DNA from: Phycisphaeraceae bacterium
GTDB taxonomy: Bacteria; Planctomycetota; Phycisphaerae; Phycisphaerales; Phycisphaeraceae
Assembly: GCA_963674705.1 (NCBI GenBank)
Contig: OY771506.1
Coordinates: 1,728,001-1,792,000, forward strand
Length of the DNA: 64,000 nt
Direction of reading: 5' to 3'
Below, piece by piece: positions 8,998 to 46,553 of the stretch. Numbering within the stretch: position 1 is the stretch's first letter; every line of letters begins with the position of its first letter. The position numbers and the translations under genes were made by a program. The notes below the pieces were generated by a model. It made no database searches and had not been told where the DNA came from. It saw only the letters and a list, made by a program, of their open reading frames with translations.

Positions 8998-9546
8998 TCA
9001 CCAGTCTGAACGGATCATCGCCTCGGCGTTCATTCGTGGTTTATCCACCGGCGTGAAAGCGACCTTCAAGAGCGTGGCCTGCTTGGCGATACGCAGGTTG
9101 TCTACGCCCAGGCGGAACAGGTAGCCGCGTGTGATCGGGTCGTAATGCTCTCGTTGTTGGGCGAGCGTCATCGTTTCCGCATTCCATGTGTATAGCAAAC
9201 GTTGTGGGGCGCTTCCCAGTGATTCATCGACGCTGTATAGCTCGATCCTGAAGGTCCCCGCCGCCTTCATCGGGTCACCCATCTGGTCGAACAACTCGAA
9301 ACGCGCTTCGAGGATCGCTCGGCCGGACTCCTGGATGAACCGCGTTGACGGATAAACCCGGATACTGGTCGGCTCCGGCGTCCAATACACCGCTGGTTGT
9401 CCCGGAGGCTCAGGGCTCTCGTTTATCGCCGGCGTTGTCTGTTGCGCCGGCGGCGCCTCGCAGCCCACAATCAGCAACAACATCAGGCACACCAACCACC
9501 TGATCGATGAAGTCGCTACGCCCGTGATGTTTATCCGTGGACCCAT
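8998..9546 (-). CDS. Hypothetical lipoprotein at the distal end of the phage-like operon
   Basis: Hydrophobic stretch plus lipobox-like IVGC; start placed at ATG 9546 within ORF 8998..9798. Confidence 0.6.
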   Translation of the reverse strand: MGPRINITGVATSSIRWLVCLMLLLIVGCEAPPAQQTTPAINESPEPPGQPAVYWTPEPTSIRVYPSTRFIQESGRAILEARFELFDQMGDPMKAAGTFRIELYSVDESLGSAPQRLLYTWNAETMTLAQQREHYDPITRGYLFRLGVDNLRIAKQATLLKVAFTPVDKPRMNAEAMIRSDW

Positions 9547-9581
9547 ATGCTGAAAAAGAATAGATCGCTTACCCGCCTGTA

Positions 9582-9827
9582 TCAAGAACCGCCTGAATCT
9601 TCCACGTTCGTGGCGACACGCTGGGCGTCGATCGATGCCTCGGCCTTCACATATCCCAGCGACGTCGCCAGGATCACGAGCAACGAGGTAATCGACGTCG
9701 ATGCATCCACGATCGCGCTCTCTTGGCCGGGCCAGAACAGCACGATCAGGGCGGTGATCTGGGCGGAGACCGCCAGGATGAACTTCCGGCTGGCCCAACG
9801 GGGTATCGTCGTTTGTGTTTGTGACAT
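9582..9827 (-). CDS. Small 2-TM holin-like protein
   Basis: 81 aa, SRKF followed by two hydrophobic helices and a charged tail, a pattern common in phage holins. Confidence 0.5.
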   Translation of the reverse strand: MSQTQTTIPRWASRKFILAVSAQITALIVLFWPGQESAIVDASTSITSLLVILATSLGYVKAEASIDAQRVATNVEDSGGS

Positions 9828-9863
9828 AGGGAATTCCTTGGATTCGTTTTTGAAGGTTTTGTC

Positions 9864-10121
9864 TCAGGACGGAAGGATTTGCTTGATAATCGTCTCGGTT
9901 ATATTCAATAGCCGCGATGCTCGGATCAGGGTTGCTTCGTTGATGCCGGCTTCTCGCATCGCTGCGATGAACTGTGGGTCATCCCGGAGCAACTGCACCG
10001 CGGATTCCACCAGACGCACCCGATCGATCGCCTCGGCCAGGTGAGGGTGCCTCGCCGCCCATTCATTCCAACGGACATCGATCTTCTCGCTGACAAGCGT
10101 ACGCAGTTCCTGGCTACTCAT
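9864..10121 (-). CDS. Hypothetical protein (85 aa)
   Basis: ATG 10121 overlaps the end of the upstream gene; same strand as the operon. Confidence 0.55.
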   Translation of the reverse strand: MSSQELRTLVSEKIDVRWNEWAARHPHLAEAIDRVRLVESAVQLLRDDPQFIAAMREAGINEATLIRASRLLNITETIIKQILPS

Positions 10122-10611
10122 TTGTCGTGTTCCTTTGCATGACATCAAATCCATGTAACAGTTGCTCGAGGTTGTCACCGGTAATATCTTCAAGCAGCCC
10201 TTCTTGCTGTTCGATTAGTACGATGGCTCGTTTTGTTGCTGATGCAGCGGTGCGTAAGTTTTCGGCACGACCGCGTTGTGCTTCAGCCAAACTTGCCTGG
10301 TGCGTCAACAGGGTCTCTCTTGCCATCACATACACAGCTGTGGCTTCACTTACCCATTGCGGTGTTAGTTGTTCAGCCCGTTGCAGATCATGCAGGTATG
10401 CATCCTCAAGTGCATCGAGGTTATTTCGTGTATTAGCCTGCTCACGTTCAGCATCGTCTTCGAGCCTTGCGGATTCTTCGGTTAGTGCACGCTCTGTGAT
10501 CTGTAGCAGCGGCACGACGGATGAAGGTGTGCTGCATCCGCAAAGAATAATGATCGCAGAAAGAGCCAGAAACAGCAGACTCCATTCAGATCGTCTTGTG
10601 ATCCATGTCAT
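10114..10611 (-). CDS. Coiled-coil lipoprotein (possibly spanin-like)
   Basis: Signal peptide with lipobox-like LCGC, then a long helical, heptad-like region; lies between holin-like genes. Confidence 0.5.
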   Translation of the reverse strand: MTWITRRSEWSLLFLALSAIIILCGCSTPSSVVPLLQITERALTEESARLEDDAEREQANTRNNLDALEDAYLHDLQRAEQLTPQWVSEATAVYVMARETLLTHQASLAEAQRGRAENLRTAASATKRAIVLIEQQEGLLEDITGDNLEQLLHGFDVMQRNTTNE

Positions 10612-10855
10612 GATGCATCTTCTCCAGGAGTTCTTTGAGTTGCAGTTGAGTCCGGTCGAATCGCGCAATCGCACGCGTGTTCTGCCTGACGAGCTTGACT
10701 AATGTGTTCAGCTCGTGGTGTTGTTGCTGTAGATGGATGTGGGCCTCATTAAGCTGCGCCTCACGCTTGCGCGACATCAAACGCTCCCACACCCAAAGCA
10801 TACCCATCAGGCCCGCCACGCCGAACTGTGTCAGCGGTTGTATCGCATCCATCAT
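10586..10855 (-). CDS. Single-TM plus coiled-coil protein, BhlA/UviB-holin-like
   Basis: QFGVAGLMGMLWVW TM segment, then RKRE and a coiled coil. Confidence 0.45.
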   Translation of the reverse strand: MMDAIQPLTQFGVAGLMGMLWVWERLMSRKREAQLNEAHIHLQQQHHELNTLVKLVRQNTRAIARFDRTQLQLKELLEKMHHDMDHKTI

Positions 10856-10877
10856 CTTGAACACCTCTTGTGTGGTG

Positions 10878-12653
10878 CTAGTAAACCATCGTTATGGCAG
10901 TGGTTCGGCCACGCGTCGGATGCATGGCAAAACGTGTTTGGACCGAACGGATAGTTCCGCCAGATCGTGTTGCCGATTGGGGGAGCCCGTCGATAGCCTT
11001 GTCTAACCCCTTGACTTCAAGCAACCGATCACCTGGTTTAAGGAAAGGTCTGGTTCCCGTAAGCACAAGCGTTGCACTAGCGCCTCTTATATGGCTACCG
11101 TTGGCGTGCCTTGTAACACGATCGGTCAACCATGCGAACATAGCCTGTTGGTCATCAGATATATCCGCCTGCAAGTTTCCCATCGAAAAATCCGAGTAAT
11201 GAATGCTTTGCGGATCTATCCTGGCAAATCGGAACTGATCCGACACATCTAACACTTTCGGATCAAGCGTGCAGCGGAACGGATTACCAAACCAGCGGCT
11301 TAATTCGATAGGCTTTGGGCTTGTAAGACTGGCTGTTACACGCACGCGTGCAGTGCCGTTCTTCGCTGCCGCCAGGAAGTCCATGGGTAGTGTTTTCGGA
11401 TCGAGATAAATCCCAGCCCGATCGGTCAGGATAGCTGAGGCCATTACAATGCTGACCCAACTACTGCCAGCATTAACGCTGACTTCGATTTCAGGCTTGC
11501 GTGGATCGCCCCACTCATCGAGTGTCAGGTTGTCTTCAAAGCGAAGCGGCTGTGGATTGATACCGCTGGTGCTGAAGAACGCATTCAAGTTGAATGCCTG
11601 GCCACGGTTATATGGTGACAGAGTGTAATAGCCATCTTCATTGAGTACCCAACGCCGATATACGTCGGCATACAAAACAAAGTTCGAGCTGTCATCCTTG
11701 TCGTACTCGTCATCAGCCCGTCCTTCCAGTGCAGGGTCCCAGCCGCCGACCAAATCAAACGTTGATTCCACTCGCCAGCCGTCGGCTCGGGCGATCCAAA
11801 GTCGAGCTGCGGATGTGGGTTGTAGGGTGTTGACCTCGATCACCTCGCCGATGGGGTTGCTCTCACTTGGCCAATTGATTCTGATCGGCCGACCAGCCGA
11901 CGCTGGGCGAACGACGCGGCGCTCGATGATGACACCGCTCTCACATGATAGATCACGTTGAACTACCAGATCGTACGTATCAAGCAGGTCCTCAAGTACA
12001 TCGCGTATCGGTTTGCGTAGATCGACCGTCTCCGACAACACACATTCTGAAAGCTGACGGGGTAGACCAGTTGTTGATAATTCCAAGTTGGCTAATGCAG
12101 ATAAAGTCCTGATCGCCTCGCCCACGGTCCACACTAAGCCTGAATCTTCTTGTAGAACATACACCCACGAGCCATTGAATATGACCTTGTTGGCGGAACA
12201 ATTAGCACTTACGCCGATCTTTAAGATCCCCGAATCCATCGTAAATAAGATTCCGCCTGCCCCGATCCACCAGATATCGGTCATTGATTTGTCTGTCAGT
12301 TCGGTCCATGCATCACGCAATTCAAAATGTAATTCGTGTGTGCCTGCCGCTTCGGAAGTATCAAGCTGATAAAGTCGGCCGTTCGATAATACGGACCATT
12401 TTGTCAGCCCGTCTGATAGCTGTAAGGGGATAGCAATCGTGGCTTGAGCATTGAGCCATCGTGAGCGGGTACATGATGTGATTGTGGCATCGTTTGAGAC
12501 AAGTTGCGATGTACGAATGTCTAATGGGCCGGCGACATGATGCGACGCGACCGAAAGGCGTGGTTCCGGGACGCCATCGATCAGCACGACAGGTTCAGGA
12601 TCGTCGGTGATGGCTGATTTCGCTAATTTGTCAAGAGATGCGCAAGCGGTCAT
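10878..12653 (-). CDS. Putative virion structural protein (tail-tip/hub-like), 591 aa
   Basis: Long ORF translationally coupled (ATGA overlap) to the upstream gene; position and size fit a hub/Tal-type protein; no motif-level proof. Confidence 0.4.
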   Translation of the reverse strand: MTACASLDKLAKSAITDDPEPVVLIDGVPEPRLSVASHHVAGPLDIRTSQLVSNDATITSCTRSRWLNAQATIAIPLQLSDGLTKWSVLSNGRLYQLDTSEAAGTHELHFELRDAWTELTDKSMTDIWWIGAGGILFTMDSGILKIGVSANCSANKVIFNGSWVYVLQEDSGLVWTVGEAIRTLSALANLELSTTGLPRQLSECVLSETVDLRKPIRDVLEDLLDTYDLVVQRDLSCESGVIIERRVVRPASAGRPIRINWPSESNPIGEVIEVNTLQPTSAARLWIARADGWRVESTFDLVGGWDPALEGRADDEYDKDDSSNFVLYADVYRRWVLNEDGYYTLSPYNRGQAFNLNAFFSTSGINPQPLRFEDNLTLDEWGDPRKPEIEVSVNAGSSWVSIVMASAILTDRAGIYLDPKTLPMDFLAAAKNGTARVRVTASLTSPKPIELSRWFGNPFRCTLDPKVLDVSDQFRFARIDPQSIHYSDFSMGNLQADISDDQQAMFAWLTDRVTRHANGSHIRGASATLVLTGTRPFLKPGDRLLEVKGLDKAIDGLPQSATRSGGTIRSVQTRFAMHPTRGRTTAITMVY

Positions 12654-14791
12654 GCGGATGCTCCTTGTACCTGCAGGTATGCTGTCGGCGTCCCTGCAGG
12701 CTCAAACCAATCAGAGAAAGGTGTGTATTGCTCGACACCATCGTGCGAAGCAAACCGCCAGCGATAACGCGTCTTTGTTGTGGGGAGCGGCAAAGAGACT
12801 TCGATAGTATGGCTCAATACGTCGAAGTCAGGCGTGTCAACAACAGTTACCGCTTGACCGGTCACCTGGTGCAGCAGTTCAATCCATTGAATACCTGAGT
12901 CGCCAAGTCTGCTACTCCAGATGGCCGACAGTCGAACCTCACCATTTTCAATACATAATGGCCAAGCTTCGACATCAGGCCAGGCAGGCATCGTGATCGT
13001 TTGAAGTAACGCACCATCCACGCGCTCGACACAGATGCTCCTGCTCGATGCCTCGAGCCTGCCTTCAGAATCACTGCGACGAATCACATAGTGCCAGATG
13101 CTGTTTGAGGCCGGCAGGTCGTTACTCAAATTGATAGAAGTTGAATCGGCCGACAACACATAACTTGGCGACGTTACATCCATCTCTTCCAGTGATGCCA
13201 ATGGCCCGAATAATTCGATCCCCTGCTTGGGCATCATGACCTTCATCAACGGGTCACCCACCAGATAAAAGCCAGATCGCAATACAGGCTGTGCGACATG
13301 CCATGCTTCCGCCAGCGTCCAGCCATGAGTGAGTGCGCCAAAGAACGCATCCACGTCAGGAATCGCCGTAATGGGATTGTCGCGACAGGATGCAATAGCT
13401 GCAGCGTATCCCGCATGAATCGGCGTATCGATCCAGTTACCCGGTGTTTCACTACGTAACGTCGTCGCTGAAGCCCCAAGGTATAGTTGTACGCATACCG
13501 CTCTCTGGCCCGGCGGATCAACAAAGATATTGGGGTCAGGCAATGACGAATCCCAGCCCCAGTAAACGCCATCGCCAGACACATCAGCGAAACTCGCTTC
13601 TTCGTTGCTTGCCGGATCGCCACTTAACACAATCGGTAATCGGGTTTGCATGCTACCCATCCCTGTCGTCCAATCCAGCATGCCGGTAAACGCCTGTTGA
13701 TAAGTTGGCTCATCCCCGACGAACGGATCGAAGTAGATCGTGGATTCTGCACTGTTAAGCCCCGAGTTATTGATTGTTGTCGCGCTATCGAGCACGTTGT
13801 ATGCCTGCTGTAAATCATGCGCATCGAAACGCGCCGTCATTCTGACGCCGGATAGATCGTTAAAAGAGAGCCGTTGGAGTTCGGCCGGGGAGGCATTCGG
13901 ATTGGTTAACATACCTGCAGTTAGATTGTTGGTATGTATGAGCGCAGGAATCGCTTCAATCGGCCCCTGTCCCGTGAAGTCGACGTATCCGGGCGCTCGG
14001 TAACCTATCAATATGCCCATGATCTGGTTCATCAGATGATTGTCAGTCAGATAATCATCAATCTGATTAACCATCGACACATACTCAGCCGCATCAATTA
14101 TCTCTGTTACAGGCAAAACCAAACCAAGAAGATTAGCAAACGGTATGTCGTGTAATTGCCGGTATGCCTCGACCCATAGTGCCGCATCGGCAACCGCCAG
14201 GTTGTACACCACCAGCCAGCGTGCCGGATCTCCTGCGTGCTCTTGCGCAGGCTGCACGGTCACCGGTCCGATGTATTCATCCGCAAGTATCAATTCATCC
14301 AGAAATAACTCACCCGTTACATCGGTCTGCTTATTAATAACACCGAACAGGATGGTCTTGATCCCAACACCGCCCAGATCAGCACTTGGATGATCCACTA
14401 GCACACCATTGACCCAGAGATTCAAGACTCCCCCGCTGCTATCCAACGCGACTTCAATACATTGCCACGAGATCACACCATCCAGGATTGCCGACGCATG
14501 TACAATACCGGGTGTGCTTGCAGTGATAGTGCGAGAAGACGAGTCATAGCTGATGCGCAGTACTTCTTTACCTTGTTGATCCAGTCCTGCAAGCAGCACC
14601 AGGCACCCCCCATTGATCTGTCGGGGGTTCAGGACAAAACGAATATGTAGAAGCGACTTCTCGTTCTCCAAATCATGTCGGATATATCTGCCCTCATCAC
14701 CAGATGACAAAGTCACTTGCAGGCTTCGGCCTCCGTCCTTCGGCCGATCGGGAAATGTGCATGTGTCTGTTTGGTTCAGCATCGTGCCCAT
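12650..14791 (-). CDS. TIGR03790-like domain protein with N-terminal beta-sandwich
   Basis: WLVVYN...YRQLHDIPFANLLGL and GWTLAEAW...LVGDPL match my recollection of the TIGR03790 pattern; ConA-like N-terminus (WQCIEV...LWVNG...FLDELIL); no signal peptide. Confidence 0.55.
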   Translation of the reverse strand: MGTMLNQTDTCTFPDRPKDGGRSLQVTLSSGDEGRYIRHDLENEKSLLHIRFVLNPRQINGGCLVLLAGLDQQGKEVLRISYDSSSRTITASTPGIVHASAILDGVISWQCIEVALDSSGGVLNLWVNGVLVDHPSADLGGVGIKTILFGVINKQTDVTGELFLDELILADEYIGPVTVQPAQEHAGDPARWLVVYNLAVADAALWVEAYRQLHDIPFANLLGLVLPVTEIIDAAEYVSMVNQIDDYLTDNHLMNQIMGILIGYRAPGYVDFTGQGPIEAIPALIHTNNLTAGMLTNPNASPAELQRLSFNDLSGVRMTARFDAHDLQQAYNVLDSATTINNSGLNSAESTIYFDPFVGDEPTYQQAFTGMLDWTTGMGSMQTRLPIVLSGDPASNEEASFADVSGDGVYWGWDSSLPDPNIFVDPPGQRAVCVQLYLGASATTLRSETPGNWIDTPIHAGYAAAIASCRDNPITAIPDVDAFFGALTHGWTLAEAWHVAQPVLRSGFYLVGDPLMKVMMPKQGIELFGPLASLEEMDVTSPSYVLSADSTSINLSNDLPASNSIWHYVIRRSDSEGRLEASSRSICVERVDGALLQTITMPAWPDVEAWPLCIENGEVRLSAIWSSRLGDSGIQWIELLHQVTGQAVTVVDTPDFDVLSHTIEVSLPLPTTKTRYRWRFASHDGVEQYTPFSDWFEPAGTPTAYLQVQGASA

Positions 14792-15476
14792 GAAACCCCC
14801 GATGCCGTGGCGGCTTGGTAGTGTGCGTAAATGCGTTCAGTAGATAGCGCATGGTCATAAATCGCGAGTTCGTCCAATGAACCGTAATTAAAATCACTAT
14901 TGGCGGATTGATTAATCAGAAGTGTTGAATCCGCCGTGTTGATGATCGTGCTGCCGGCTCCTGCTAGTACTGAAGCAGACAACAAAGCACTATCCAAGTA
15001 GAGCGAGAATTCATCACAGCGCGTTGCACCAATAGGGAATGTTAACACCAGGTGATGCCATTGTTCGTCAAGTGAAAGACCCGTGACGCCAAATCGGCAA
15101 TTAACCACTGCTACGGATACTTCATCGGTGGTGTACGTCATTAACAGCCTTGTGCCCGCAGATGTATTTCCGTAGTTGATACCGCGATAGGCCACTGTGC
15201 TGCTATTAGCTTTAAACCATAGTTCAATCGTGCGCTCGCTTGCACCAACCGGGAGCCAACCGGTCTGGCTTACACGCAGCCCGCCTGTTCCATTTGATTC
15301 AACAGCCGTATCGCTATCGAGAATCAGTGGCCCGGTCGTCCCCCATGTCAATACACCATCAACTTGAGCGTCTTGGTTCCCGGTTTCATCATGAGCGGTT
15401 GGGCCGTTTGATCCTCCCAGTCGAAGATACATCAACGGGGAATCCGCCATGACTTCGCCGCGATAACTGAGCCGAC

Positions 15477-16521
15477 TAGAGCGTCTTCCAATCTCATGTA
15501 GCATACCCGCAGCTGCGGAAGTAGTTGCGGCACTCGTCCAGTGATACCGCACGCAACGCCCGACCGATCGCCTCAATCAGTTTGTCGCTGGTCCGCGCGG
15601 CGGCGGCACGCAGCAGGGCTTTGACCTTGCTCCACATCTTCTCGATCGGGTTGAAGTCCGGTGAGTACGGCGGTAAGTACCACAGGTCACAGCCCGCCGC
15701 TTCGATCGCTTCACGCACCCCGCGCACCTTATGCGACGCCAGGTTATCCATCACGACGATCTGGCCTTGCTTTAGTGCCGGGGCCAGGCAACGCTCGACG
15801 TAGCCGCGGAACAGCGCCGCATCCGTCGCGCCGTCGAAGGCCAGCGTCGCCCGTTGGATCACACCCTCACAACCGATCGCGCTGAGCATCGTCGTCGTAC
15901 GCCAGTGGCTGTGCGGCGCCGCGGCGTCCAGCCGGCAACCGCGTCCGGCCCAGCCCCGCAGGCGGGTCATGTTCGTCCTCGCGCCCGATTCATCCAGGAA
16001 AACAAGCTGCTTAGGCTCGATGAACCGTGTGGCGATGCGGAAGTTCACACGCTGCTGCTTCACATCCGCGCGGTCCTGCTCGCTGGGCCGTAATGACTTT
16101 TTTTAAACGTCCACCCCAGCTTCCAACGCACCGTCCGCCACATCGTGCCCAGCCCGCAACGGATGCCCAGCTCACGCTCACAACGCACACGCAACGCATC
16201 CAGCGTCGTGTCCGGCTTCTGCTTGAGCATCGCATGTACACGCTGCAGGTCTTTGCCGGCGAACCGGCTGACGTAGTCGCCGCCCTGAGGCCGCGGCGCG
16301 ATCCCCTCGCCTTCACGACGCCGTTGCTTGAGCCGACGCACCCACGAGGCGCTGACCGAGAACCGCTTGGCCACCTCACGCGTGCCGTGCCCGGCATCAC
16401 ACGCCGCCAACACCCGCTTCCGCAGATCCATTGAATATGCCTTCATCAAAGCCTCCTTGCTTGAAGGCACAGCATAATCACTTGTGTACAAGGGCGCTAC
16501 AGTGGCGTGGAAGATGCTCTA
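15477..16521 (-). mobile_element. IS630-family insertion sequence with TA target duplication
   Basis: Ends TAGAGCGTCTTCCA (15477) and TGGAAGATGCTCTA (16508-16521) are 13/14 inverted repeats including the duplicated TA; GC visibly higher than the flanks. Confidence 0.93.
15494..16446 (-). CDS. IS630 transposase (two ORFs joined by a probable -1 frameshift)
   Basis: OrfA MKAYSMDLR HTH; OrfB DDE motifs FLDESG, VMDNL, LPPYSPDFNPIE; TTTAAAAAAAG at about 16097-16107, where -1 gives KKSLRPSEQDRADV. Confidence 0.9.
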
Positions 16522-16612
16522 ATAGGTGGCGCCTGCAACTCGCCCCATGCAGGCACCTGGAAGTCAATATGTTTATATACAGTCATGCCGCTTCTCGCCG
16601 ATTGGTTAGGGA

Positions 16613-17065
16613 TCAAACACTGAAAATATGTTCGATACGCCGATCGAGTATTTGTGTGATCTGTCCGGATGCGATCGTGACTTCCGCCAGTTTCAGGTGC
16701 GCCGTGCCGGGCCAGCCAATACCATCTAGCCCCGCACCAATACCAGCTTGGCCGGCGTCGTTGAATAGCCACAGGTAAACTGTGTCGTTGTTATAGGCAG
16801 CAAGTTCTAGCGTTTGCCCGGCACATTCGAGCACTACCCCCGAGATACTCGCCCGACCCGGTGCAATCAGCACACTTGTGCCCGAGCCACCGTCACGACA
16901 GACACGCAATGCACCCAAAGAGGATTCGGCCAATAGATGAAGCGTGCGTATCAGCCATTCGTAATAGGGCTGCAGGCCGTTCGGTGGGTACTCAAAACCG
17001 GCAACCGCATGCCGAGTACCGACAAGGCTATCGATTTCGATGCTGGTAAGTTCCTGGATAGGCAT
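16613..17065 (-). CDS. Hypothetical virion-associated protein (150 aa)
   Basis: ORF within the phage-like operon; V.IAPGRA.I.G and LAEVTI...ITQILDRR resemble tail/baseplate-associated domains. Confidence 0.5.
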   Translation of the reverse strand: MPIQELTSIEIDSLVGTRHAVAGFEYPPNGLQPYYEWLIRTLHLLAESSLGALRVCRDGGSGTSVLIAPGRASISGVVLECAGQTLELAAYNNDTVYLWLFNDAGQAGIGAGLDGIGWPGTAHLKLAEVTIASGQITQILDRRIEHIFSV

Positions 17066-17099
17066 GTTGTGATCCGATTCTTTATTTGTTGCTTGCTGG

Positions 17100-17831
17100 T
17101 TACGCGATCCTGTCCCACACAAACGTGCTTGGCGAGTTAAGTTGAAGACCTGTTACTGCCGGCGGCAGAAGTTCGGTATTTTGCGTAAGCTCAACTGGCA
17201 ACGCGACCGACTCGCCCACGCCGCTGCCGGCTGAAAGATTCAACGCGTGTTCACCCGCGTCGGTTGCGCATTTCCATCGCCACATCGTCCCGCCATAGCC
17301 CAGTGCACCAGCCCCAAAATCACCGATGCCCAAACCCAAGCCAAACGCATCGTGGAATGTAATACTTCCATCCGCCAACTCCCCGGACTTCATATCAATG
17401 TCAGTCCAAAGAGGACTCTCGCATACGACGCGCCCGTCCAATTCGACTTGGATCAAAGTATCGAACGGCAATGACTCATCACGGATCACATCAATTGAAA
17501 GTGAATCCGATATGCGGGGTTGCCATGCTTTCAATAACCCCGGCTGTGCCCGCCATACTGCGTCCGTTTCATCCATCGGCACCGCAAGCAATTCAACACG
17601 ATGTGGCCGCGTTCGGTCCAGCTCAATCATCACTTCACGCTGAGATACATCCAGTGTCACATCGAATAATGCATCATCCACGTAGATTTGTACCAGACGC
17701 TGCCCCTGCTGCGGCGCCCGCCACCACACGTGCGCCAGGTTTGGATGTTCGCCACCTGTTATCGCAACTGGCCTGGCCAGCACCAGTTCAAATACATCCT
17801 GCGTTGCGTTCGTGGTGATGAAGCTACTCAT
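17100..17831 (-). CDS. Hypothetical virion-associated protein (243 aa)
   Basis: ATGA-coupled to the upstream gene; Gly-rich GLGLGIGDFGAGALGYGG segment. Confidence 0.55.
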   Translation of the reverse strand: MSSFITTNATQDVFELVLARPVAITGGEHPNLAHVWWRAPQQGQRLVQIYVDDALFDVTLDVSQREVMIELDRTRPHRVELLAVPMDETDAVWRAQPGLLKAWQPRISDSLSIDVIRDESLPFDTLIQVELDGRVVCESPLWTDIDMKSGELADGSITFHDAFGLGLGIGDFGAGALGYGGTMWRWKCATDAGEHALNLSAGSGVGESVALPVELTQNTELLPPAVTGLQLNSPSTFVWDRIA

Positions 17832-18196
17832 GGCTTCACCTGCAGATATTCGATCGTGTAGTCACACCTCCACCGGGCACCGATGCGTATAAACGCACCC
17901 GACTTGAAACTGATCATCACACAGTCTGTCCACGCCTTACCATGCTCATCAAATAGAGTGTGTGTCAGACCATCAAGCTTGCTCTGTATCGCATCAATCA
18001 GTGCCTGCAAATCCAATGACGTATCCGCGATTAAACAGCCAACCTGGTCTATCTGCCTGACTTGCTTGCCTTCGATGTCCAGCCGTGCGCCGTAAGAGCC
18101 CGGTGTATTGCGGATCGTATGACGAAGCTTGATCGGCCCCATTTGCAGCACAGCCGTGCCCGAGGCAAATATGGCGTCGTTATCAAGTAGTACCAT
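17828..18196 (-). CDS. Hypothetical protein, possibly tail-tube/Dit/GpU-like fold (122 aa)
   Basis: Size, position and a G...R.I...G.L...LQALID...TL.DEHG.W pattern reminiscent of tube-initiator proteins. Confidence 0.35.
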   Translation of the reverse strand: MVLLDNDAIFASGTAVLQMGPIKLRHTIRNTPGSYGARLDIEGKQVRQIDQVGCLIADTSLDLQALIDAIQSKLDGLTHTLFDEHGKAWTDCVMISFKSGAFIRIGARWRCDYTIEYLQVKP

Positions 18197-18226
18197 GATA
18201 GTGCTCTCAATGGAGTTGCTATTTAT

Positions 18227-18865
18227 TCAGATCCGCGTCATGACGGTGCTGCCAAGCGCGATCCGTCGATCCACGACACCATCACCATCTACATCCAGCA
18301 GCACCGTTGCTTCCGCGCACGCCTCCCTGAAACGTCTGCGGTATTCACTCGCTTTCAGCATCAACGTGTCGTTATCTCCCACCAATGATGCTGCTCCGCT
18401 ATAGATCACTTCGAGTGTGCCCAGTGCCTCAATCCGTGCGAGTAGATCGATCGACATCACTGAAGATTCACCCACTTCACACGCTGCATCTTCATGCTCG
18501 ACACCAATCAGACGCATCAAGCCTGTGTGTACAACTTCGGCCTGGGGGCTGAATGTCCGCGCGATCAGCTCAAGGTTGGATCCGTCACCCCCCGGTATAG
18601 CCGCTTCCATATCCGATGCCCGCGGTAACGACACCTGAAGCGTATTTGCATCAATACGCTCCAGGACTTCATGAACGACACGGTTAAGCAACACAACACA
18701 TCCTGCATCAATACCCGCGGCGACGAAGTCCGCTGAATCGCTGGTCAACGTCGTGCCGGTGAGAACAGCATCTTCCACCTTCAATCGCTGCTGTGCTGCG
18801 AAAGGCACATCCTCAAACACGGCGGGTTCAATCGCCAACAGGTCTCGGTCGGTGGTAAAGCTCAT
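18227..18865 (-). CDS. Putative head-tail adaptor/head completion protein
   Basis: Directly downstream of the capsid gene; helical C-terminal half ending LDVDGDGVVD; GAGG RBS. Confidence 0.45.
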   Translation of the reverse strand: MSFTTDRDLLAIEPAVFEDVPFAAQQRLKVEDAVLTGTTLTSDSADFVAAGIDAGCVVLLNRVVHEVLERIDANTLQVSLPRASDMEAAIPGGDGSNLELIARTFSPQAEVVHTGLMRLIGVEHEDAACEVGESSVMSIDLLARIEALGTLEVIYSGAASLVGDNDTLMLKASEYRRRFREACAEATVLLDVDGDGVVDRRIALGSTVMTRI

Positions 18866-18899
18866 GACTTACCTCGATAAATATGAGTTGGATGGAATT

Positions 18900-18927
18900 G
18901 TGTCGGCAGCGTTCAAGCCGCCGACAC
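18900..18927 (-). terminator. Stem-loop downstream of the major capsid gene
   Basis: Minus strand GTGTCGGCGGC-ttgaac-GCTGCCGACAC, an 11-bp stem with one G-U pair; weak U tract. Confidence 0.45.
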
Positions 18928-18979
18928 TTTGAAATAGAAGGTTGCGATCAAATTCGGGATTAAGATTCAGGGGTCAGCT

Positions 18980-20149: not shown

Positions 20150-20209
20150 AGTATTTGTCCTTGTTGTTAGATTTTGAGTTCAGTGGTTTGAGACGAGTAG
20201 ATCGGCCGG

Positions 20210-20740: not shown

Positions 20741-20791
20741 ATGTCTTCCTGTGGGATTGATTGTGAACGGTGAAGTAAAGCACGCCGGTTG

Positions 20792-22318: not shown

Positions 22319-22522
22319 CCACACCCTTGGCGAATCGCCTGCTTTTGAGCGCATGAAGACAGCGGGTAATGAGGGGGCCTGCTAATAAACCTCGTGATGA
22401 TCCCGTACAAGCGATTTGAGATACGCCACCAATAAGGTAAGGAAAATGTTAGGTATTGTGCGCATCAAATTGGCTATTTCGGAGTTGCATTTGAGGTCGA
22501 GTGGTGATTAAATGTGCGTAGT

Positions 22523-24130: not shown

Positions 24131-24131
24131 C

Positions 24132-29734: not shown

Positions 29735-29739
29735 CCCCG

Positions 29740-40800: not shown

Positions 40801-41670
40801 TCACAGCCGCGAATACCGCCACACCGCGCGGTACAGCCCCGCTACCTGTTCCCGTGGATGCACAGCCGGTGCGAACTTCGGGTTCAAGGGTTGTAGCCGA
40901 ACCAACTCGCCGTCCTCATCAAAGTACACACGCTTAAAGGTTGTCTCATGATCCGGCTCAAGCCTGACAAAACAATCACACCCGTCCGTCACATCCGCCG
41001 CCGGGCTGAACACGACGATGTCGCCCTCCCGATACTCAGGCAACATCGACTCGCCGTTCACCACCGCGGCAAAGGCATCCGGATCATCCAACCCCGGGCA
41101 ACTCACGTAATCGTCCGCGGCGCGGGCCGGGTAATCCAGATCGGTAAACCCGCACGGGTAACCCGCAGCGACCTTGTTGATAAGCGGGACGCGAGGCATT
41201 TGGGCTACTTGGTACGACGTTTGATCGTCATGCTCAATCGCGACAGTCTCGTTATGCGATGCTGTCGCACCCTCAACCGTGCCAAGCGCATTATCAATCA
41301 TCTTTCGCAGTTGCCCGCTTTGATACAAACCGTCAAGGTCCTTACCGATGCCTTCTTTGCTCCGCGCGCTATCCCGGATAAACCGCGCCAGCGCCCGGCC
41401 TCGCTTCGCATCATCCGACAACCGCTGTACCTCATCGCGCACACCCGCCGGCGCCCGCTCCCAGTCGCCGGTGCGCTGCAGCGAACCATCCGTGACCTGA
41501 AGCGCCGCTTCCAAAGCACGCAACAATGCCGTCGAAGGCGGATTCGCCACCCGATGGTTTTCGATCATCGACAGATAGCTCTTGGTCGATCCGACCGCCT
41601 TGGCCAGGTCCTCCAGTGTTAGCCCGAGTTTGAGCCGTTGCTCGTGCAGTTGTTCGCCGAGCGTGTGCAT
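40801..41670 (-). CDS. CI/LexA-like repressor (XRE HTH plus S24 peptidase)
   Basis: LTLEDLAKAVGSTKSYLSMIEN HTH; VAAG cleavage site, GESM (Ser) and TFKR (Lys); GGGAGG RBS before ATG 41670. Confidence 0.9.
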   Translation of the reverse strand: MHTLGEQLHEQRLKLGLTLEDLAKAVGSTKSYLSMIENHRVANPPSTALLRALEAALQVTDGSLQRTGDWERAPAGVRDEVQRLSDDAKRGRALARFIRDSARSKEGIGKDLDGLYQSGQLRKMIDNALGTVEGATASHNETVAIEHDDQTSYQVAQMPRVPLINKVAAGYPCGFTDLDYPARAADDYVSCPGLDDPDAFAAVVNGESMLPEYREGDIVVFSPAADVTDGCDCFVRLEPDHETTFKRVYFDEDGELVRLQPLNPKFAPAVHPREQVAGLYRAVWRYSRL

Positions 41671-41685
41671 CGTTGGCCTCCCGAA

Positions 41686-41703
41686 GTTCAAAATCCATTG
41701 AAC
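41686..41703. promoter_or_regulatory. Palindromic operator 1 (GTTCAA-N6-TTGAAC)
   Basis: GTTCAAAATCCATTGAAC between the repressor start and the divergent promoter; second copy at 42235. Confidence 0.7.
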
Positions 41704-41709
41704 ATTTGC

Positions 41710-41738
41710 TTGACAGCAGACCCAACGTCCGCGATAAT
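41710..41738 (+). promoter_or_regulatory. Near-consensus sigma-70 promoter driving the terminase module
   Basis: TTGACA-N17-GATAAT, 40 nt upstream of ATG 41779. Confidence 0.7.
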
Positions 41739-41778
41739 ACCCTAACAAATACCATACAAGTAGGGGGATTTCAAGCCC

Positions 41779-42195
41779 ATGTCTCCGAATCTCAGCCAGA
41801 TTTCCACCACCGCACACGCCCAGCGTCAGCTCAAACGCAAGCAGGTACAGGAGTTATTGGCACTTGCAGATTATTTGCCGGATAAGGACCGTGTCTTGAT
41901 CGAGCACGTCCTGGGCAAGGGTATGCCCGTCGCTCGGGTCGCCAAGCTCTATCAGCGTCCACCCCGCCAGCTTCAACGGCAGGCGACAAACGTCATTAAA
42001 CGCATGTCAGATCAGCTATTTAAGTTCGTCGCCCTGCACATGAATACCCTCCCGGCCGAGACGCGCACCACCGCCCGATACGTCGTCCTGCAAGGTAAAA
42101 GCCTGCGCGAAACCGCCCGATCCACCAACACAAGCCTCCACTACGTCCGCAGACACATGGATATCGTCCACGCCACCGCACGCTTGCTCGCCTGA
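41779..42195 (+). CDS. Small basic HTH protein (sigma region-4-like), probable regulator
   Basis: Two HTH-like repeats (LPDKDR.LIE...GMPVARVAK; LPAETR...VLQGKSLRETA); divergent from the repressor. Confidence 0.6.
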   Translation: MSPNLSQISTTAHAQRQLKRKQVQELLALADYLPDKDRVLIEHVLGKGMPVARVAKLYQRPPRQLQRQATNVIKRMSDQLFKFVALHMNTLPAETRTTARYVVLQGKSLRETARSTNTSLHYVRRHMDIVHATARLLA

Positions 42196-42234
42196 TCCAG
42201 CCCGCCGGGGCAAATCAATCACCCACCTGTTCAG

Positions 42235-42252
42235 GTTCAACCATCATTGAAC
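42235..42252. promoter_or_regulatory. Palindromic operator 2 (GTTCAA-N6-TTGAAC)
   Basis: GTTCAACCATCATTGAAC, 14 nt before ATG 42267; both copies are followed by ATT. Confidence 0.7.
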
Positions 42253-42266
42253 ATTGCGGAGCCGTC

Positions 42267-42941
42267 ATGCGCATCAATCTCGAACACGCCGTCGATTCTG
42301 CCGTCACCTGCTCGCCCAACGTCCTCGAAGTCGCCGCGATGTTCGGCCTGGGGATCGACCAGGATCGCACCATCCAGATCATCCCCCAAACCGAACTCAC
42401 CCTCTTGCCGGGCAAGATCGTCTTCATCACCGGCTCAAGCGGCGGCGGCAAGTCCACCCTCCTGCGCCTGATCCGCGAGCAACTGTCTAACGATGACGCC
42501 GCGCATGTCCTGTGCTTCGATCAACTCCCGCCTGTCGATGACCGCCCGTTGGTCGATTGCTTTCCAAACCGGCCGCTCGATCAGACGCTGCGACTGCTCT
42601 CGCTTGCCGGGCTCAACGACGCGTTCGTCATGCTCCGCAAACCCTCCCAGCTATCCGACGGCCAGCGCTACCGCCTGCGCCTCGCTCAAGCCATGGCCAT
42701 GACCGAAGAAGACGTCCTACCAAGCATCAAGAAGATCATCCTCGCCGATGAATTCTGCGCTACCCTCGACCGCGTCACCGCCAAAGTCATCGCACGCAAC
42801 GTCCGCAAATGGATCACAAACACCAGCGCCTGCTTCATCGCCGCGACCACACACGACGACCTGCTCGAATCCCTCGACCCCGACATCCTCATCGAAAAAC
42901 ACCTCGGCGAATTGCTTGACCTTCTCACAAAGACCGCCTGA
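42267..42941 (+). CDS. Stand-alone ABC-type ATPase (phage-associated type)
   Basis: GSSGGGKST Walker A, LSDGQRYR signature, ILADEF Walker B, ATTH; no permease nearby. Confidence 0.8.
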   Translation: MRINLEHAVDSAVTCSPNVLEVAAMFGLGIDQDRTIQIIPQTELTLLPGKIVFITGSSGGGKSTLLRLIREQLSNDDAAHVLCFDQLPPVDDRPLVDCFPNRPLDQTLRLLSLAGLNDAFVMLRKPSQLSDGQRYRLRLAQAMAMTEEDVLPSIKKIILADEFCATLDRVTAKVIARNVRKWITNTSACFIAATTHDDLLESLDPDILIEKHLGELLDLLTKTA

Positions 42942-43741
42942 TGCGTAGCACACTTAAACAACGCTTCAACACGCATCGCCATGATCGGCCTGACGAGCAA
43001 CTCACACTCGTCGAGGGCACAATGGCCGATTACAACGCGCTTAAGCAATACCACTACCGTGCCAAACGCCCCGCCACCGCAACACGCATCCTGGCGCTGC
43101 GTCATTCCGCACCCACTGCTGCGACACGTTTCAAACATGAGCCGCCGGCACAACAAACCGTTGCTGTGCTCATCGAGTCGCTACCAAGCCTGGCATGCAG
43201 GATGCGCAATCTCGCACTTAGCGAACGTTACGGCAAAGGCCTGACAGCTAAGCAGCAGGCAACGCTACTCAATAAAGAAGTCCGCGTGATCAGCCGTGTC
43301 GTTGTGCATCCATGCTGGCGCGGATTGGGCCTGGCGGTCCGTCTCGTCCGCGCTGCGCTTAGTGCACCCACAACCATCTACACCGAAGCGATCGCTGCGA
43401 TGGGTAAGGTCAATCCGTTCTTTACACTCGCCGGCATGTCTGCTTATCCCCGCCCGCCGCACGCTTGCGACACACGTCTCATCGAAGCGATGCAGAGTAT
43501 CAACCTGAAGCCTCACAACCTCGCCTTAATCGAACAAACCCAACAAACCATCGATGCACTTGCATCACCCATGCGCACCTGGTTTCTCAAGGAACTACAC
43601 CGCTGGTACCGCCAGAACGCCGGCCGAAGCAGCACGCACAGCAAAGACCCACACGACCACCTCCTCGCCGCCCGCCAGCGCCTCCTATGCGAAACCATCT
43701 ACTACCTCAAAGACAACCGCGAAGTAGTGGTTGGTGATTAG
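42941..43741 (+). CDS. GNAT-like acetyltransferase coupled to the ABC ATPase
   Basis: ISRVVVHPCWRGLGLA acetyl-CoA motif A; YHY near the N-terminus; TGATG overlap with the ATPase. Confidence 0.7.
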   Translation: MRSTLKQRFNTHRHDRPDEQLTLVEGTMADYNALKQYHYRAKRPATATRILALRHSAPTAATRFKHEPPAQQTVAVLIESLPSLACRMRNLALSERYGKGLTAKQQATLLNKEVRVISRVVVHPCWRGLGLAVRLVRAALSAPTTIYTEAIAAMGKVNPFFTLAGMSAYPRPPHACDTRLIEAMQSINLKPHNLALIEQTQQTIDALASPMRTWFLKELHRWYRQNAGRSSTHSKDPHDHLLAARQRLLCETIYYLKDNREVVVGD

Positions 43742-43838
43742 TGCTGAGTGATTAGCAAACCAATCTTCTGTGCTAACAGCTAAAGGCTAACGGCTAACGG
43801 CTCCTACCCTACACCCAACACCCTACACCCCACACCCT
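43724..43838. repeat. Heptamer tandem arrays (TGATTAG / CTAACGG / CCCTACA types)
   Basis: gctaacagctaaaggctaacggctaacgg then accctacacccaacaccctacaccccacaccct. Confidence 0.6.
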
Positions 43839-43847
43839 GCCACCCCC

Positions 43848-44423
43848 ATGCAATCCCAAACACTCCCCTTAACCGAACTCCACCCCCACCCCGCCAACAG
43901 CAACGTCATGCCCGCGCACCTGCTGGGCAAGCTCGTCAAGCATATCGGTGCGACCGGCCAATATCCGCCGATCGTCGTGCGCAAGCACAACAACGCCTAC
44001 CAGATCCTCGACGGCCACCACCGCGTCAAGGCCTTGCAACAACTCGGACGCGCCAATGCCAACTGCATCGTCTGGCAAGCCAACGATGAAGAGGCCCTGT
44101 TACTACTCGCCACGCTCAACCGCCTGCAAGGCCAGGACGATCCGCTCAAACGCGCACACCTGCTTAAGACGCTTGCCAAACATCACGACCCCGGTCTACT
44201 AAGCAAACTCCTGCCCGAACGCATCGAGCAAGTGAAGAAGCTGCTATCACTGGATGCAAAACCACCAAAGCCAACCTCGCCGCCTAATCTTGATGACATG
44301 CCGATCGCGGTCCACTTCTTCCTGTTGCCCGCACAGAAGCGGAAGCTATCGCAGTGCCTTAAACAATTAGGTGGGACGAGAGAGCAGGCGCTGATGAGGT
44401 TGGTTGATGAGAGAAGCCATTAG
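43848..44423 (+). CDS. ParB/sulfiredoxin-like N-terminal domain protein
   Basis: LHPHPANSN, PIVVR, YQILDGHHRV.AL, N.LQG. Confidence 0.8.
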   Translation: MQSQTLPLTELHPHPANSNVMPAHLLGKLVKHIGATGQYPPIVVRKHNNAYQILDGHHRVKALQQLGRANANCIVWQANDEEALLLLATLNRLQGQDDPLKRAHLLKTLAKHHDPGLLSKLLPERIEQVKKLLSLDAKPPKPTSPPNLDDMPIAVHFFLLPAQKRKLSQCLKQLGGTREQALMRLVDERSH

Positions 44424-44586
44424 CCCTTAGCTATTAGCCATTAGCTAGACACAAATCACCAGCTACCAACTACCAAGATACCCGCCCCTTCGCTGCGCTC
44501 AGGACCGGCGTTGGGGGAGAGAAGCCGTTAGCCATTAGCGATTAGCAATACCATTTCCACCCCCCACCCCCCACCCCCCCACACCC
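44409..44586. repeat. Heptamer arrays (CCATTAG type) and C-rich tract
   Basis: gagaagccattagcccttagctattagccattag, repeated as gagaagccgttagccattagcgattag. Confidence 0.5.
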
Positions 44587-44593
44587 TTCAAAT

Positions 44594-45055
44594 ATGCCCA
44601 ACAATATCGACAACACGAAACGCGCCGAATTGATCAACGACCTGATCCACGCCAAGCTCGATATCACAGAACTTGAAAGCCGTTACGGCATCACAGCCGA
44701 TCAGATTTCACAATGGGTCCGTGAGCCGGACAACTACAGCTGTCTTGCGGGCTTGAGCGTCGTTGCCGACATCCAGACGCAACTTTTGCTCAATCGCCTC
44801 CGCGCAAGCGCCGCCACGCAGTTGTTTGAGTTGGCGATGAAGCCTGTTGATGAAACAAAGGTGGCGCTGGATATCTCCCGACGGGCGTGCGTCGACCTGC
44901 TCAAGCTCGACCTGCCGCGTGCTGACACGAACAAGCAGTTTGCCAATAGCGACGATCAATCATCGTCCGCGCAGAGCCTGGACATGTTGCGTCAACTGAT
45001 CCAGCAGCCTGAAAACGACAACGTTGCACATGATACGGACGAGCGCGATGATTAA
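44594..45055 (+). CDS. Putative terminase small subunit (N-terminal HTH)
   Basis: ITELESRYGITADQISQW HTH, helical core; immediately upstream of and overlapping terL. Confidence 0.55.
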   Translation: MPNNIDNTKRAELINDLIHAKLDITELESRYGITADQISQWVREPDNYSCLAGLSVVADIQTQLLLNRLRASAATQLFELAMKPVDETKVALDISRRACVDLLKLDLPRADTNKQFANSDDQSSSAQSLDMLRQLIQQPENDNVAHDTDERDD

Positions 45056-46553
45056 ATCAGCCAAACACCCGCCCGTAAAAACCATCACGCAATTGCAAGC
45101 ACTTGAGCCGACCAATGACAGCGAGCTGCACCGTTTTGTTCAGTATGCGTTTGGTTTGAACGTTCCGCGCAAGCCGATCATCGAAGGCAATACCGCGCCG
45201 TTCGATTACCTGTCCCATGCTTACTTCGAGCCGACGCCCACACTCGGACACAACCCGACGCGAGACGCGGTCGTCTGGGCGAACCGTGGCGGGGGCAAGA
45301 CCATGCTTGGTGCGGCCGCGACGCTGCTCGACATGCTATTCAAACCTGGCATCCAGATCAGCATCCTCGGCGGATCGTTCGAACAATCCTGCAAGATGCA
45401 CGATCACCTGCTCTCACTGGTCGATCGACCGTGGTTCCGACACCTGCTGCGCAGCGAACCCACGCAGCGCTACATCGAACTGTTCAACGGCAGCCGGGTG
45501 CGCATCCTCGCCGGCTCGCAACGATCGATCCGAGGCGTACGCGTCCATAAACTCCGCTGCGATGAGGTTGAAGAATTCCAACGCGATGCATGGGAGGCTG
45601 CGCAACTCGTTACACGTTCCGGTTTCTGCGGCGAAAAGTTCATCCACGGCTCCGTCGAAGCGCTCTCCACAATGCACCGCCCCTTCGGGCTCATGGCTGA
45701 GATCACACACGGCCGCAATGATGAGGAAGCCAACGAAAGAAAACTCTTCCGCTGGTCCGCCATCGATGTCATCGAAAACTGCTCCCCGTTTCGCTCATGC
45801 GAAAGCTGCGAGCTTTGGCAGGACTGTCAAGGCAAAGCCAAACACGCCCGGGGCTTTGTCGCAATCGACGACCTGATCCATCAGAAGCAGCGCACCAGCA
45901 TCCGCACGTGGGCGGCCGAGATGATGTGCCAGGAACCCGAGGTAAGCCACTGCGTTTATGCGGAGTTCGATAAAACACAGAACGTCTGTAGCAATGTTCC
46001 CGAGGTTGAAACCGGTGCATGGATCGGCGGGATGGACTTTGGCCTGCGCAACCCCACCGTCATGCTCTGGGCACGTGTCGGCCCGCCAGATCACGACCCG
46101 ACACAGCGCACGATCCAAATCATCGATGAATACATCAAAGGCGAATTGATCTTCGATAAACACCTCGAAGCGATCCACACACGCGCCGAGTTGCAAGGTT
46201 GGCCACGCGTTGACTGGTTGGGTGCGGACCCGGCAGGTAACCAGCGCAACAGCCATTCTGGCGTCAGCGATGTGCAGGTCCTGCGCACCTCGGGCTACAC
46301 CGTCCGCACGCGTCAATCACACATCAGCGACGGTATCGAACGCATCCGCCGACGACTCGACCACGGCACCCTCTTCATCCACCCGCGCTGCCAGCAACTG
46401 ATCAAAGCGATCCAGTCCTATCACTACGATGTGAAAAATCCCCACCGAGAAGAACCGATCAAGGACGGGCCGGACCACCTGTGCGACGCTCTTCGCTATA
46501 TGGTTGTTAATTTGGAATTAGGATCGGGGAAGGTAGTTGTTGAGAGGTATTGA
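45048..46553 (+). CDS. terL: Terminase large subunit
   Basis: NRGGGKT Walker A, LRCDEVEE Walker B, GGMDFG nuclease start, ADPAG, DHLCDALRY; start could be 45030. Confidence 0.9.
   Translation: MIKSAKHPPVKTITQLQALEPTNDSELHRFVQYAFGLNVPRKPIIEGNTAPFDYLSHAYFEPTPTLGHNPTRDAVVWANRGGGKTMLGAAATLLDMLFKPGIQISILGGSFEQSCKMHDHLLSLVDRPWFRHLLRSEPTQRYIELFNGSRVRILAGSQRSIRGVRVHKLRCDEVEEFQRDAWEAAQLVTRSGFCGEKFIHGSVEALSTMHRPFGLMAEITHGRNDEEANERKLFRWSAIDVIENCSPFRSCESCELWQDCQGKAKHARGFVAIDDLIHQKQRTSIRTWAAEMMCQEPEVSHCVYAEFDKTQNVCSNVPEVETGAWIGGMDFGLRNPTVMLWARVGPPDHDPTQRTIQIIDEYIKGELIFDKHLEAIHTRAELQGWPRVDWLGADPAGNQRNSHSGVSDVQVLRTSGYTVRTRQSHISDGIERIRRRLDHGTLFIHPRCQQLIKAIQSYHYDVKNPHREEPIKDGPDHLCDALRYMVVNLELGSGKVVVERY

Follow-up and report, generated by a model that had tools for sequence, protein, structure and literature searches.

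A phage-derived head-and-packaging system split between two host loci across the Phycisphaerae: a candidate gene-transfer-agent-like particle

Gene transfer agents (GTAs) are recognized, according to the accessible part of PMC11841831, by phage-derived genes, the lack of replication and integration functions, a spread over several loci and vertical inheritance. The RcGTA-type agents of Alphaproteobacteria, which include CcGTA and DsGTA, carry phage-derived head and tail-tip genes in such an arrangement, and Brachyspira VSH-1, Bartonella BaGTA, Desulfovibrio Dd1 and Methanococcus VTA arose by independent domestication of different phages and are likewise encoded at dispersed loci (PMC11841831, same part). 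Few independent GTA lineages are given as known there, and their commonness is posed as an open question. Here we describe a split head-and-packaging system in a 64,000-nucleotide stretch of DNA (the window), positions 1,728,001 to 1,792,000 of the single-contig, 5.54-Mb genome of a Phycisphaeraceae bacterium (contig OY771506.1). A head operon on the minus strand (8998–22264 of the window) is separated from a packaging block (40801–46553) by host genes.

We interpret these loci as an ancient phage-derived system, inherited vertically at two places under purifying selection, which on a cautious balance of the evidence likely works as a GTA-like particle. This interpretation is favored because the system shows the hallmarks listed for GTAs in the accessible part of PMC11841831: its capsid, portal and terminase genes are intact, it has no replication, integration or excision genes of its own, it is held vertically under purifying selection, and it occupies several loci. 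The evidence comprises gene content and order, single-copy occurrence, co-occurrence of the two blocks, host-like gene trees, selection, catalytic residues and the folds of two tail-tip proteins, the hub and Dit; from these genes alone, a GTA function appears a marginally favored prediction. A literature search, with subscription papers outside its coverage, found no description of this system. A class-wide genome survey makes no mention of phage, capsid or virus (PMC11266412), the accessible part of PMC7947584 refers to no more than a prophage in a different planctomycete class, and no planctomycete appears in that of PMC10582014.

The system falls outside the RcGTA family. Its proteins are unrelated to those of RcGTA: the capsid is SU10-type with a separate scaffold, the portal is SPP1-type, protease and tape measure are lacking, and a tube usually is as well. 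It has its own CI-like repressor, a small terminase-like protein (TerS) with a helix-turn-helix (HTH)-like N-terminus, and ABC, GNAT and ParB genes beside the terminase. Searches for RcGTA homology or synteny gave capsid matches in the PDB only to 9ny2, 9in6 and 7z45 (E up to 1) and no PF04860 portal, protease or tape measure. VSH-1, BaGTA, Dd1 and VTA are tailed particles demonstrated by experiment, whereas the Phycisphaerae system, described here from its genes, extends over a whole class and has repeatedly lost its tail tip. Phage-inducible chromosomal islands that form capsids (cf-PICIs) also encode their own capsid and terminase and form tail-less heads able to use phage tails (accessible part of 10.1101/2025.02.11.637232). 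However, these islands are mobile and fill their particles with their own DNA, whereas integrase, att sites, replication genes and signs of mobility are missing here, where the system is inherited vertically. Tailocins and extracellular contractile injection systems (eCIS) share domesticated phage structural genes and a hub of gp27/VgrG fold, yet keep the tail without head and terminase; the present system keeps capsid, portal and large terminase (TerL), loses the tail, and gave no sheath family match in Pfam or PHROGs. It also differs from encapsulins in that portal (40/40 loci) and scaffold (33/40) genes share an operon with the shell gene.

Open reading frames (ORFs) picked as likely genes were scanned against Pfam (68 of the window's 206) and PHROGs (38 of 206). 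These scans largely bear out the gene map of the original prediction, which had proposed a co-oriented morphogenesis operon without a terminase, a terminase module running from repressor to TerL, and about 18.5 kb of ordinary host genes between them. Portal, scaffold and capsid gave family matches in the head operon and no terminase was found there with Pfam or PHROGs; each part of the packaging block was recognized by family or profile; and the gap holds nifA-like, rnr, lgt, oppBA, FKBP, murEF-mraY and pilin genes. The proposed complementarity of the modules is seen both here, with the capsid in one and the terminase in the other, and in their co-occurrence across the class. All structural and packaging genes are single-copy in the genome.

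The same prediction had noted no integrase, att repeat or replication gene, and searches of the window for integrases, repeats and gene families were all empty. The window contains no tyrosine integrase (of nine in the genome, the nearest are 113 kb and 89 kb away from it), no tRNA gene and no att-like direct repeat, and no replication or excision gene among the scanned ORFs. Across relatives, an integrase-like gene (tyrosine type only) stands at one of 80 module loci. The features that define a prophage, namely integrase, att sites, a replication module and a contiguous genome, are thus lacking, and host genes separate the modules in several assemblies. Taken with single copy, module co-occurrence, host-tracking trees, purifying selection and a split shared with relatives, this makes the system almost certainly a domesticated element rather than a prophage, in agreement with the original prediction. 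The prediction had also expected of such an element single-copy inheritance, trees congruent with the host, low ratios of nonsynonymous to synonymous divergence (dN/dS) and a consistent absence of integrase neighbors, and the results on each of these support domestication.

The distribution sample comprised 151 Phycisphaerae genomes drawn evenly from the class; because related genomes are not independent, its counts are descriptive and carry no statistical test. The capsid gene is present in 90 of them and TerL in 97; 87 have the two together, three have the capsid alone, ten have TerL alone, and 51 lack both. One capsid match was obtained in 79 of the 90 carriers, the remainder being pieces or weak matches. 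Presence is mostly family-wide (f2 7/7, f6 16/16, f15 15/15, f10 18/20; f7 0/8, f13 0/5, f19 0/6), and the window's own family has the capsid in 66 of 94 genomes. The ten TerL-only genomes are five with a divergent TerL (including G005, G046 and G130, in which it precedes a different portal and scaffold), four that are fragmented, and G007. This last is a complete genome in which the whole packaging block is intact (locus L243) and no capsid matches; the block might serve a separate function here, or loss of the head could be recent.

Synteny was compared in 40 genomes from ten families, picked for long contigs with capsid and TerL, so that the counts of these two genes are fixed by selection; all counts given per 40 loci refer to this set. 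The portal is present at 40/40 loci, followed by adaptor (39), GNAT (36), HTH (34), scaffold (33), ABC (29), repressor (26), Dit (22), hub (18), ParB (17) and TerS (12), and gene order is conserved within both blocks. The distance between capsid and TerL varies from 2 kb to 981 kb, and TerL directly precedes the portal in G085, G009 and G019 (G019 outside the synteny set). Misassembly or recent rearrangement, which would have undercut the original prediction, is ruled out as the source of the split, since G151 and G152 share the same 25-kb split. The adjacency of terminase and portal in three relatives, together with gaps of up to 981 kb elsewhere, marks the split as old, and one ancestral operon broken more than once would be the simplest reading of these gene orders.

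Outside the class, 12 genomes of a phylum sample match, six of them from family f62 with a parallel head operon; in the four f62 genomes tested TerL lies elsewhere, in three of them after an ABC-GNAT fusion. This family and its neighbors (L261–L268, L354–L358) carry a sister split system, with a capsid operon of about 50% identity amid host genes and TerL up to 166 kb away. At L246–L249 and L272, a related TerL and parts of the ParB-ABC-GNAT-TerS block lead into a different head, which at L246 consists of a phrog_145 portal, phrog_206 scaffold and phrog_1357 capsid. This arrangement is found in 3/3 genomes of family f9 and is possibly a second domestication or a head swap.

Vertical inheritance is supported by gene trees from 40 genomes (39 of the synteny set and the present genome; G124 was dropped as it lacks rpoB). 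Splits shared with the combined rpoB and rpoC tree number 32/37 for the head genes, 27/37 for the packaging genes, 26/37 for TerL, 24/37 for the portal and 18/37 for the capsid, compared with 24/36 between rpoB and rpoC themselves and at most three with shuffled labels. Well-supported conflicts number 0–3, and mean capsid identity is 61% against 69% for RpoB. Measured against a sister genome, dN/dS is 0.028 for the capsid, 0.070 for the portal and 0.10 for TerL, with a range of 0.019–0.28 over 17 module genes and 0.007–0.16 over seven host genes. Module dS is host-like, with the exception of the tail-tip block, where it reaches 0.82. Low dN/dS by itself also occurs in prophages, and the trees, not dN/dS, therefore carry the argument for vertical inheritance.

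These data bear on whether the locus is a prophage remnant in decay, without function today. An insertion sequence (IS) in one structural gene of this strain, broken capsid genes in several relatives and repeated loss would fit decay. Reading frames and catalytic residues are nevertheless intact across the class, dN/dS is 0.03–0.10 for capsid, portal and TerL, and the trees are host-like, so that a relic is highly improbable and already largely refuted.

The minus-strand head operon runs from portal, scaffold, major capsid protein and adaptor through a tail-tip block to a set of four or five short genes encoding membrane proteins or lipoproteins. The portal (20792–22264, 490 residues) is SPP1 gp6-like (PF05133 3e-18, phrog_64 2e-26; dN/dS 0.07), and the scaffold (20210–20740, 176 residues) matches PF06810 (8e-6) and phrog_2303 (4e-4). 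The major capsid protein (18980–20149, 389 residues; dN/dS 0.028) belongs to the SU10/DUF5309 family, with matches to PF17236 (SU10_MCP, 4e-88), phrog_1328 (4e-80) and PDB 9ny2 (1e-24). The following gene (18227–18865, 212 residues) is by position a probable head-tail adaptor; its family has only an Atlas lead, to the Mu gp36 cluster (score 0.93, 24% of members), and no match in a PDB sequence and profile search.

The tail-tip block begins with a Dit-like (distal tail, tube-fold) protein (17828–18196, minus strand, 122 residues), assigned by fold comparison. Its AlphaFold2 (AF2) model has a pLDDT of 78 and resembles SPP1 Dit (E 6e-4) and a monocin tip (Z 11.0, root-mean-square deviation 5.0, 117 aligned residues); a PDB profile search with the family found no match. 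A conserved protein of 243 residues with Gly-Phe-Gly repeats (17100–17831, minus strand; 16/40 loci), also without a match in a PDB profile search, is by position a probable tail-tip part. It is followed by a tail-fiber attachment-like protein (16613–17122, minus strand, 169 residues; 13/40 loci), whose family profile matches long tail fiber 8kec_A (E 1.2e-8). Further along, a protein of 713 residues with a TIGR03790-like middle (12650–14791, minus strand; 5e-11, below cut-off; 11/40 loci) is a probable tail-tip accessory, and a protein of 591 residues (10878–12653, minus strand) has the gp27/VgrG/Tal fold of a baseplate hub (AF2 pLDDT 75; Foldseek VgrG 4e-10, Mu gp44 2e-7), with no named Atlas family above lead level. 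The folds of hub and Dit bear out the tail-tip-like genes named in the original prediction.

The LamG (concanavalin-like) gene, a candidate for the receptor-binding protein and the gene with the highest dS of the module (0.82), is split after 20 codons by an IS630 element into a 5′ piece (16525–16586, minus strand) and a 3′ piece (14776–15476, minus strand; PF13385 2e-12; in-frame ATG at 15450). The two are continuous in the sister genome (L105), where the gene is whole and the insertion site empty, as it also is in a contig of run X4. The element (15477–16524, minus strand) is a recent insertion and lies outside the system; it comprises an HTH ORF (16060–16491) and a DDE_3 ORF (15494–16063; PF13358 6e-35) in different frames across an A-run. 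Its 11 genome copies are 98–100% identical, and the family, present here and at ten other sites, has recently expanded in the genome. Contrary to the earlier description, LamG, a structural gene, is thus broken in this strain; delivery by this strain may consequently be impaired.

The operon ends in small genes whose roles are suggested by size and hydrophobicity. A holin-like or coiled-coil gene (10586–10864, minus strand, 92 residues; 24/40 loci; dN/dS 0.019) has weak PHROG matches, a lipoprotein-like coiled-coil gene (10114–10674, minus strand; 12/40 loci) is putatively spanin-like from a hydrophobic stretch followed by Cys, and a conserved protein of 109 residues (9864–10193, minus strand; 12/40 loci) has no assigned role. 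A two-helix, holin-like membrane protein of 81 residues (9582–9827, minus strand; family profile c25 2e-24; two hydrophobic peaks) was overlooked in the earlier gene list. The last, lipoprotein-like gene (8998–9546, minus strand, 182 residues; 12/40 loci) probably starts at 9546; it lies on the opposite strand in family f8, and its membership is uncertain. The earlier term "lysis-like" thus holds for these genes as a description of size and hydrophobicity, and no endolysin was recognized in the operon.

Several observations weigh against a GTA-like particle. An orthologue of the hub is present in only 39 of the 87 carriers of capsid and TerL (its profile matched 51/151 genomes, and setting aside ten that partly matched other proteins left 41), and families f2, f8, f10 and f17, which keep heads, have none; the loss of the tail tip in more than half of carriers is a misfit to a textbook GTA. 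A tube-like profile is found in 19/151 genomes, only in f2 and f5, a count that divergent copies could escape, and the tape measure PF10145 was not found in this genome by a search whose positive control matched 8/14 genomes. No endolysin was recognized in the head operon, and the N-terminus of TerS, where found, is still HTH-like, whereas the TerS proteins of known GTAs have no DNA-binding domain (PMC11841831, accessible part). No capsid matches in 28/94 genomes of the window's own family, the capsid gene is broken in G093, G121, G135 and G016, and G007 keeps the packaging block alone. Finally, approximately unbiased (AU) tests find the exact host topology compatible with the portal (p 0.14) and reject it for the packaging genes, the head genes (p 0.02), TerL and the capsid; since rpoB and rpoC also reject each other's topology, these tests give no verdict on limited exchange.

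Tail genes are accordingly unevenly represented. In some relatives, terminator-like and tube-like genes, named by position and sequence pattern with no family match, lie between adaptor and Dit, and profile searches of the present genome found neither tail tube nor terminator. What selection keeps, as read from these genes, would be a sealed, DNA-filled head and not an injection device. Such a pattern would suit an anti-phage or tail-pirating capsid, whose heads hinder an infecting phage by taking its tails or soaking up its DNA or head proteins, and for which a tail tip of its own is optional. Head, adaptor and TerL do persist where the hub is lost in whole families, and tail-less capsids that use foreign tails have been demonstrated for cf-PICIs (10.1101/2025.02.11.637232, accessible part). 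Conversely, the hub is intact in about 45% of carriers and is under selection in this genus (dN/dS 0.24), and the system tracks the host tree, unlike the usual defense systems. Such systems are usually patchy and mobile.

Phage relatives provide further evidence on this point. Isolated phages are distant, with at most 32% identity in the capsid and about 24% in TerL. Three IMG/VR phage contigs, L111 (66%), L112 (58%) and L115, carry a capsid gene without the rest of the module (L111:7023-8183; L112:5970-7124; L115:2759-4024), in an early or replication region with RecT/RecE, exonuclease, resolvase, methylase, replication-initiator or DnaB genes as neighbors; in L111 a scaffold fragment precedes it. 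L111 and L112 have terminal repeats, and their capsids nest, with modest support, in host families f5 and f15, so that gene flow seems to run from the host system to phages. In an IMG/VR provirus, L113, the head module is present in full, with its portal truncated, and has methylase, radical SAM and small-terminase genes as neighbors. No TerL relative was found in IMG/VR with a single-protein query of low sensitivity. Capture of the capsid by three contigs could resemble counter-defense; nevertheless, a search of these contigs with PF04860, PF05133 and PF05065 found no second portal or capsid, and the captured protein may therefore be their own capsid. With these points on either side, we regard an anti-phage or tail-pirating role as unlikely, though it deserves to be taken seriously, and continue to favor a GTA-like particle.

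The packaging block has a CI-like repressor facing an HTH gene, which is followed by ABC ATPase, GNAT, ParB, TerS-like and TerL genes. The repressor (40801–41670, minus strand; probable start 41670, ORF to 41817) combines an XRE HTH (HTH_3, PF01381 3e-10) with an S24 peptidase (PF00717 7e-16). Its self-cleavage residues are conserved, Ala-Gly and Lys in 29/29 and Ser in 28/29 homologues, and it is found in 11/11 genomes of the genus and at 26/40 loci. Downstream on the plus strand lie a tandem sigma70-region-4-like HTH protein, a candidate activator (41779–42195; TIGR02937 3e-7; 34/40 loci), a soluble ABC-type ATPase (42267–42941; phrog_293 2e-29; 29/40 loci, fused to GNAT in some), a GNAT acetyltransferase (42941–43741; PF13508 in 12/12 aligned members, with matches to PDB GNATs; 36/40 loci) and a protein with a ParB N-terminal domain (ParB_N; 43848–44423; PF02195 7e-7; 17/40 loci). 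TerL (45024–46553, plus strand; PF17289 7e-7, phrog_2 1e-14; dN/dS 0.10) has its Walker A K/T, Walker B D/E and three nuclease Asp residues invariant in 48/48 homologues, in line with the intact motifs noted originally. Four Cys at residues 253–268, between the ATPase and nuclease parts, are equally invariant (48/48) and may be a metal site. In several relatives TerL carries long inserts.

The TerS-like protein (44594–45055, plus strand) matches phrog_2538 in 3/16 members, and its HTH-like N-terminus matches 8vd6 (1e-6). This N-terminus, together with the adjoining ParB and possibly DNA-marking ABC-GNAT pair, raises the alternative of site-directed packaging, in which TerS would start at a chromosomal pac site and a fixed region would be packaged processively, as in lateral transduction without a phage genome. 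TerS is, however, detected at only 12/40 loci, with weak candidates at five more and none detected at 28/40, and the neighborhood of the packaging block varies between families; site-directed packaging is therefore improbable.

Other features stand near the block. Intergenic heptamer arrays (ACCCTAC/ACCCAAC-like) occur at 29702–29737, 43805–43855, 46554–46589 and 46698–46733, and number 48 genome-wide; they are probably like repetitive extragenic palindromic (REP) elements, and an inverted pair of them brackets ParB, TerS and TerL. Just beyond TerL lie an ArnT-like glycosyltransferase gene (47358–48920) and an Amidase_2 gene (49064–49837), which are probably host genes since they do not recur near TerL in relatives. 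An ordinary chemotaxis cluster (cheW, cheR, cheA, cheX, fapA, cheB) occupies 55663–63164.

Conserved motifs suggest how the two loci might be coordinated. A bipartite pattern, TGCGC-N~19-CAAGGGTG, lies upstream of the portal (22322–22353, minus strand) as a candidate late promoter, and candidate operator repeats (TACCnAACA-like), represented in the window by two variant copies, overlie a sigma70-type promoter before the HTH gene (41738–41760, plus strand). The TGCGC...CAAGGGTG pattern occurs in 9/39 portal upstream regions against 0.2 expected, with none in four control sets, and TACCnAACA in 15/38 regions before the HTH gene against 0.5 expected; both enrichments are inflated because the patterns were derived from the same data. 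An exact TACCnAACA stands at 22455, one of 91 exact sites genome-wide. Divergent from the portal is a GAF-AAA-HTH, NifA-like activator gene (22514–24130; dN/dS 0.007), found so placed in 33/85 loci. Sigma-54 control by this adjacent gene was considered and rejected; a GG-N10-GC site is present in the window and shows no enrichment in relatives.

The system has its own CI-like repressor. RecA-type self-cleavage is established for CI/LexA proteins, and VSH-1 is induced by DNA damage. From its Ala-Gly, Ser and Lys residues, the repressor would be cleaved upon a stress signal, after which the HTH protein and terminase block would be expressed. The HTH protein may then activate the distant head operon in trans, as the conserved upstream motifs suggest, and the terminase would fill capsids with pieces of the host chromosome; host DNA is the predicted cargo since replication and excision genes are lacking and hence there is no own genome to package. 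The adaptor would close the filled head. Where the genes survive, as in this lineage, a stub tail of adaptor, Dit, hub and fiber may follow, and release might proceed via the small membrane proteins.

The particle could alternatively serve no transfer, its DNA being kept as a protected store, used as nutrient or biofilm material, or released without lysis, possibly under nitrogen control. This would agree with the lack of a recognized endolysin, the variation of lysis-like genes between families and the NifA-like regulator divergent from the portal in 33/85 loci. In the accessible part of PMC10945688, Poriferisphaera heterotrophicis ZRK32, a cultured member of the Phycisphaerae, sheds hexagonal particles of about 30 nm after nitrate or ammonium, with cells not dying, and these are assigned a 21.9-kb genome with Pseudomonas-like genes. 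A 30-nm shell would hold about 3 kb by our estimate, and the corresponding Phage-ZRK32 record (OP650935, L362) thus seems too large for its particles. That record is labeled UNVERIFIED_ORG and has no annotation; it matched 0/16 module profiles and nothing in the present genome. The ZRK32 particles are a lead to a possible product of the Phycisphaerae system. On the other hand, sigma-54 promoters are not enriched before the portal (7/111, against 12% in shuffles), and receptor-binding-like and hub genes point to delivery into cells in many lineages. A non-transfer particle is accordingly quite unlikely, and a GTA-like particle remains our preferred interpretation.

A wider proposal can be made tentatively and is to be viewed as doubtful. 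The class may own a DNA-packaging capsid that can dispense with a tail, with more than half of carriers making tail-less heads filled with host DNA that would be delivered by borrowed phage tails or by uptake, or used against phages. Phages would answer by capturing the capsid gene, and the ~30 nm particles of ZRK32 would be its product.

If the GTA-like interpretation is true, the system would represent a further independent GTA domestication, extending over a whole class of bacteria that are abundant in the sea and in soil, and a second planctomycete family has a sister system. In what it loses it is the opposite of tailocins, the head and motor being kept and the tail lost. What a host gains by packaging its own DNA could thus be put to a direct test in cultured strains; one of these is reported to shed small unexplained particles and has public RNA-seq data.

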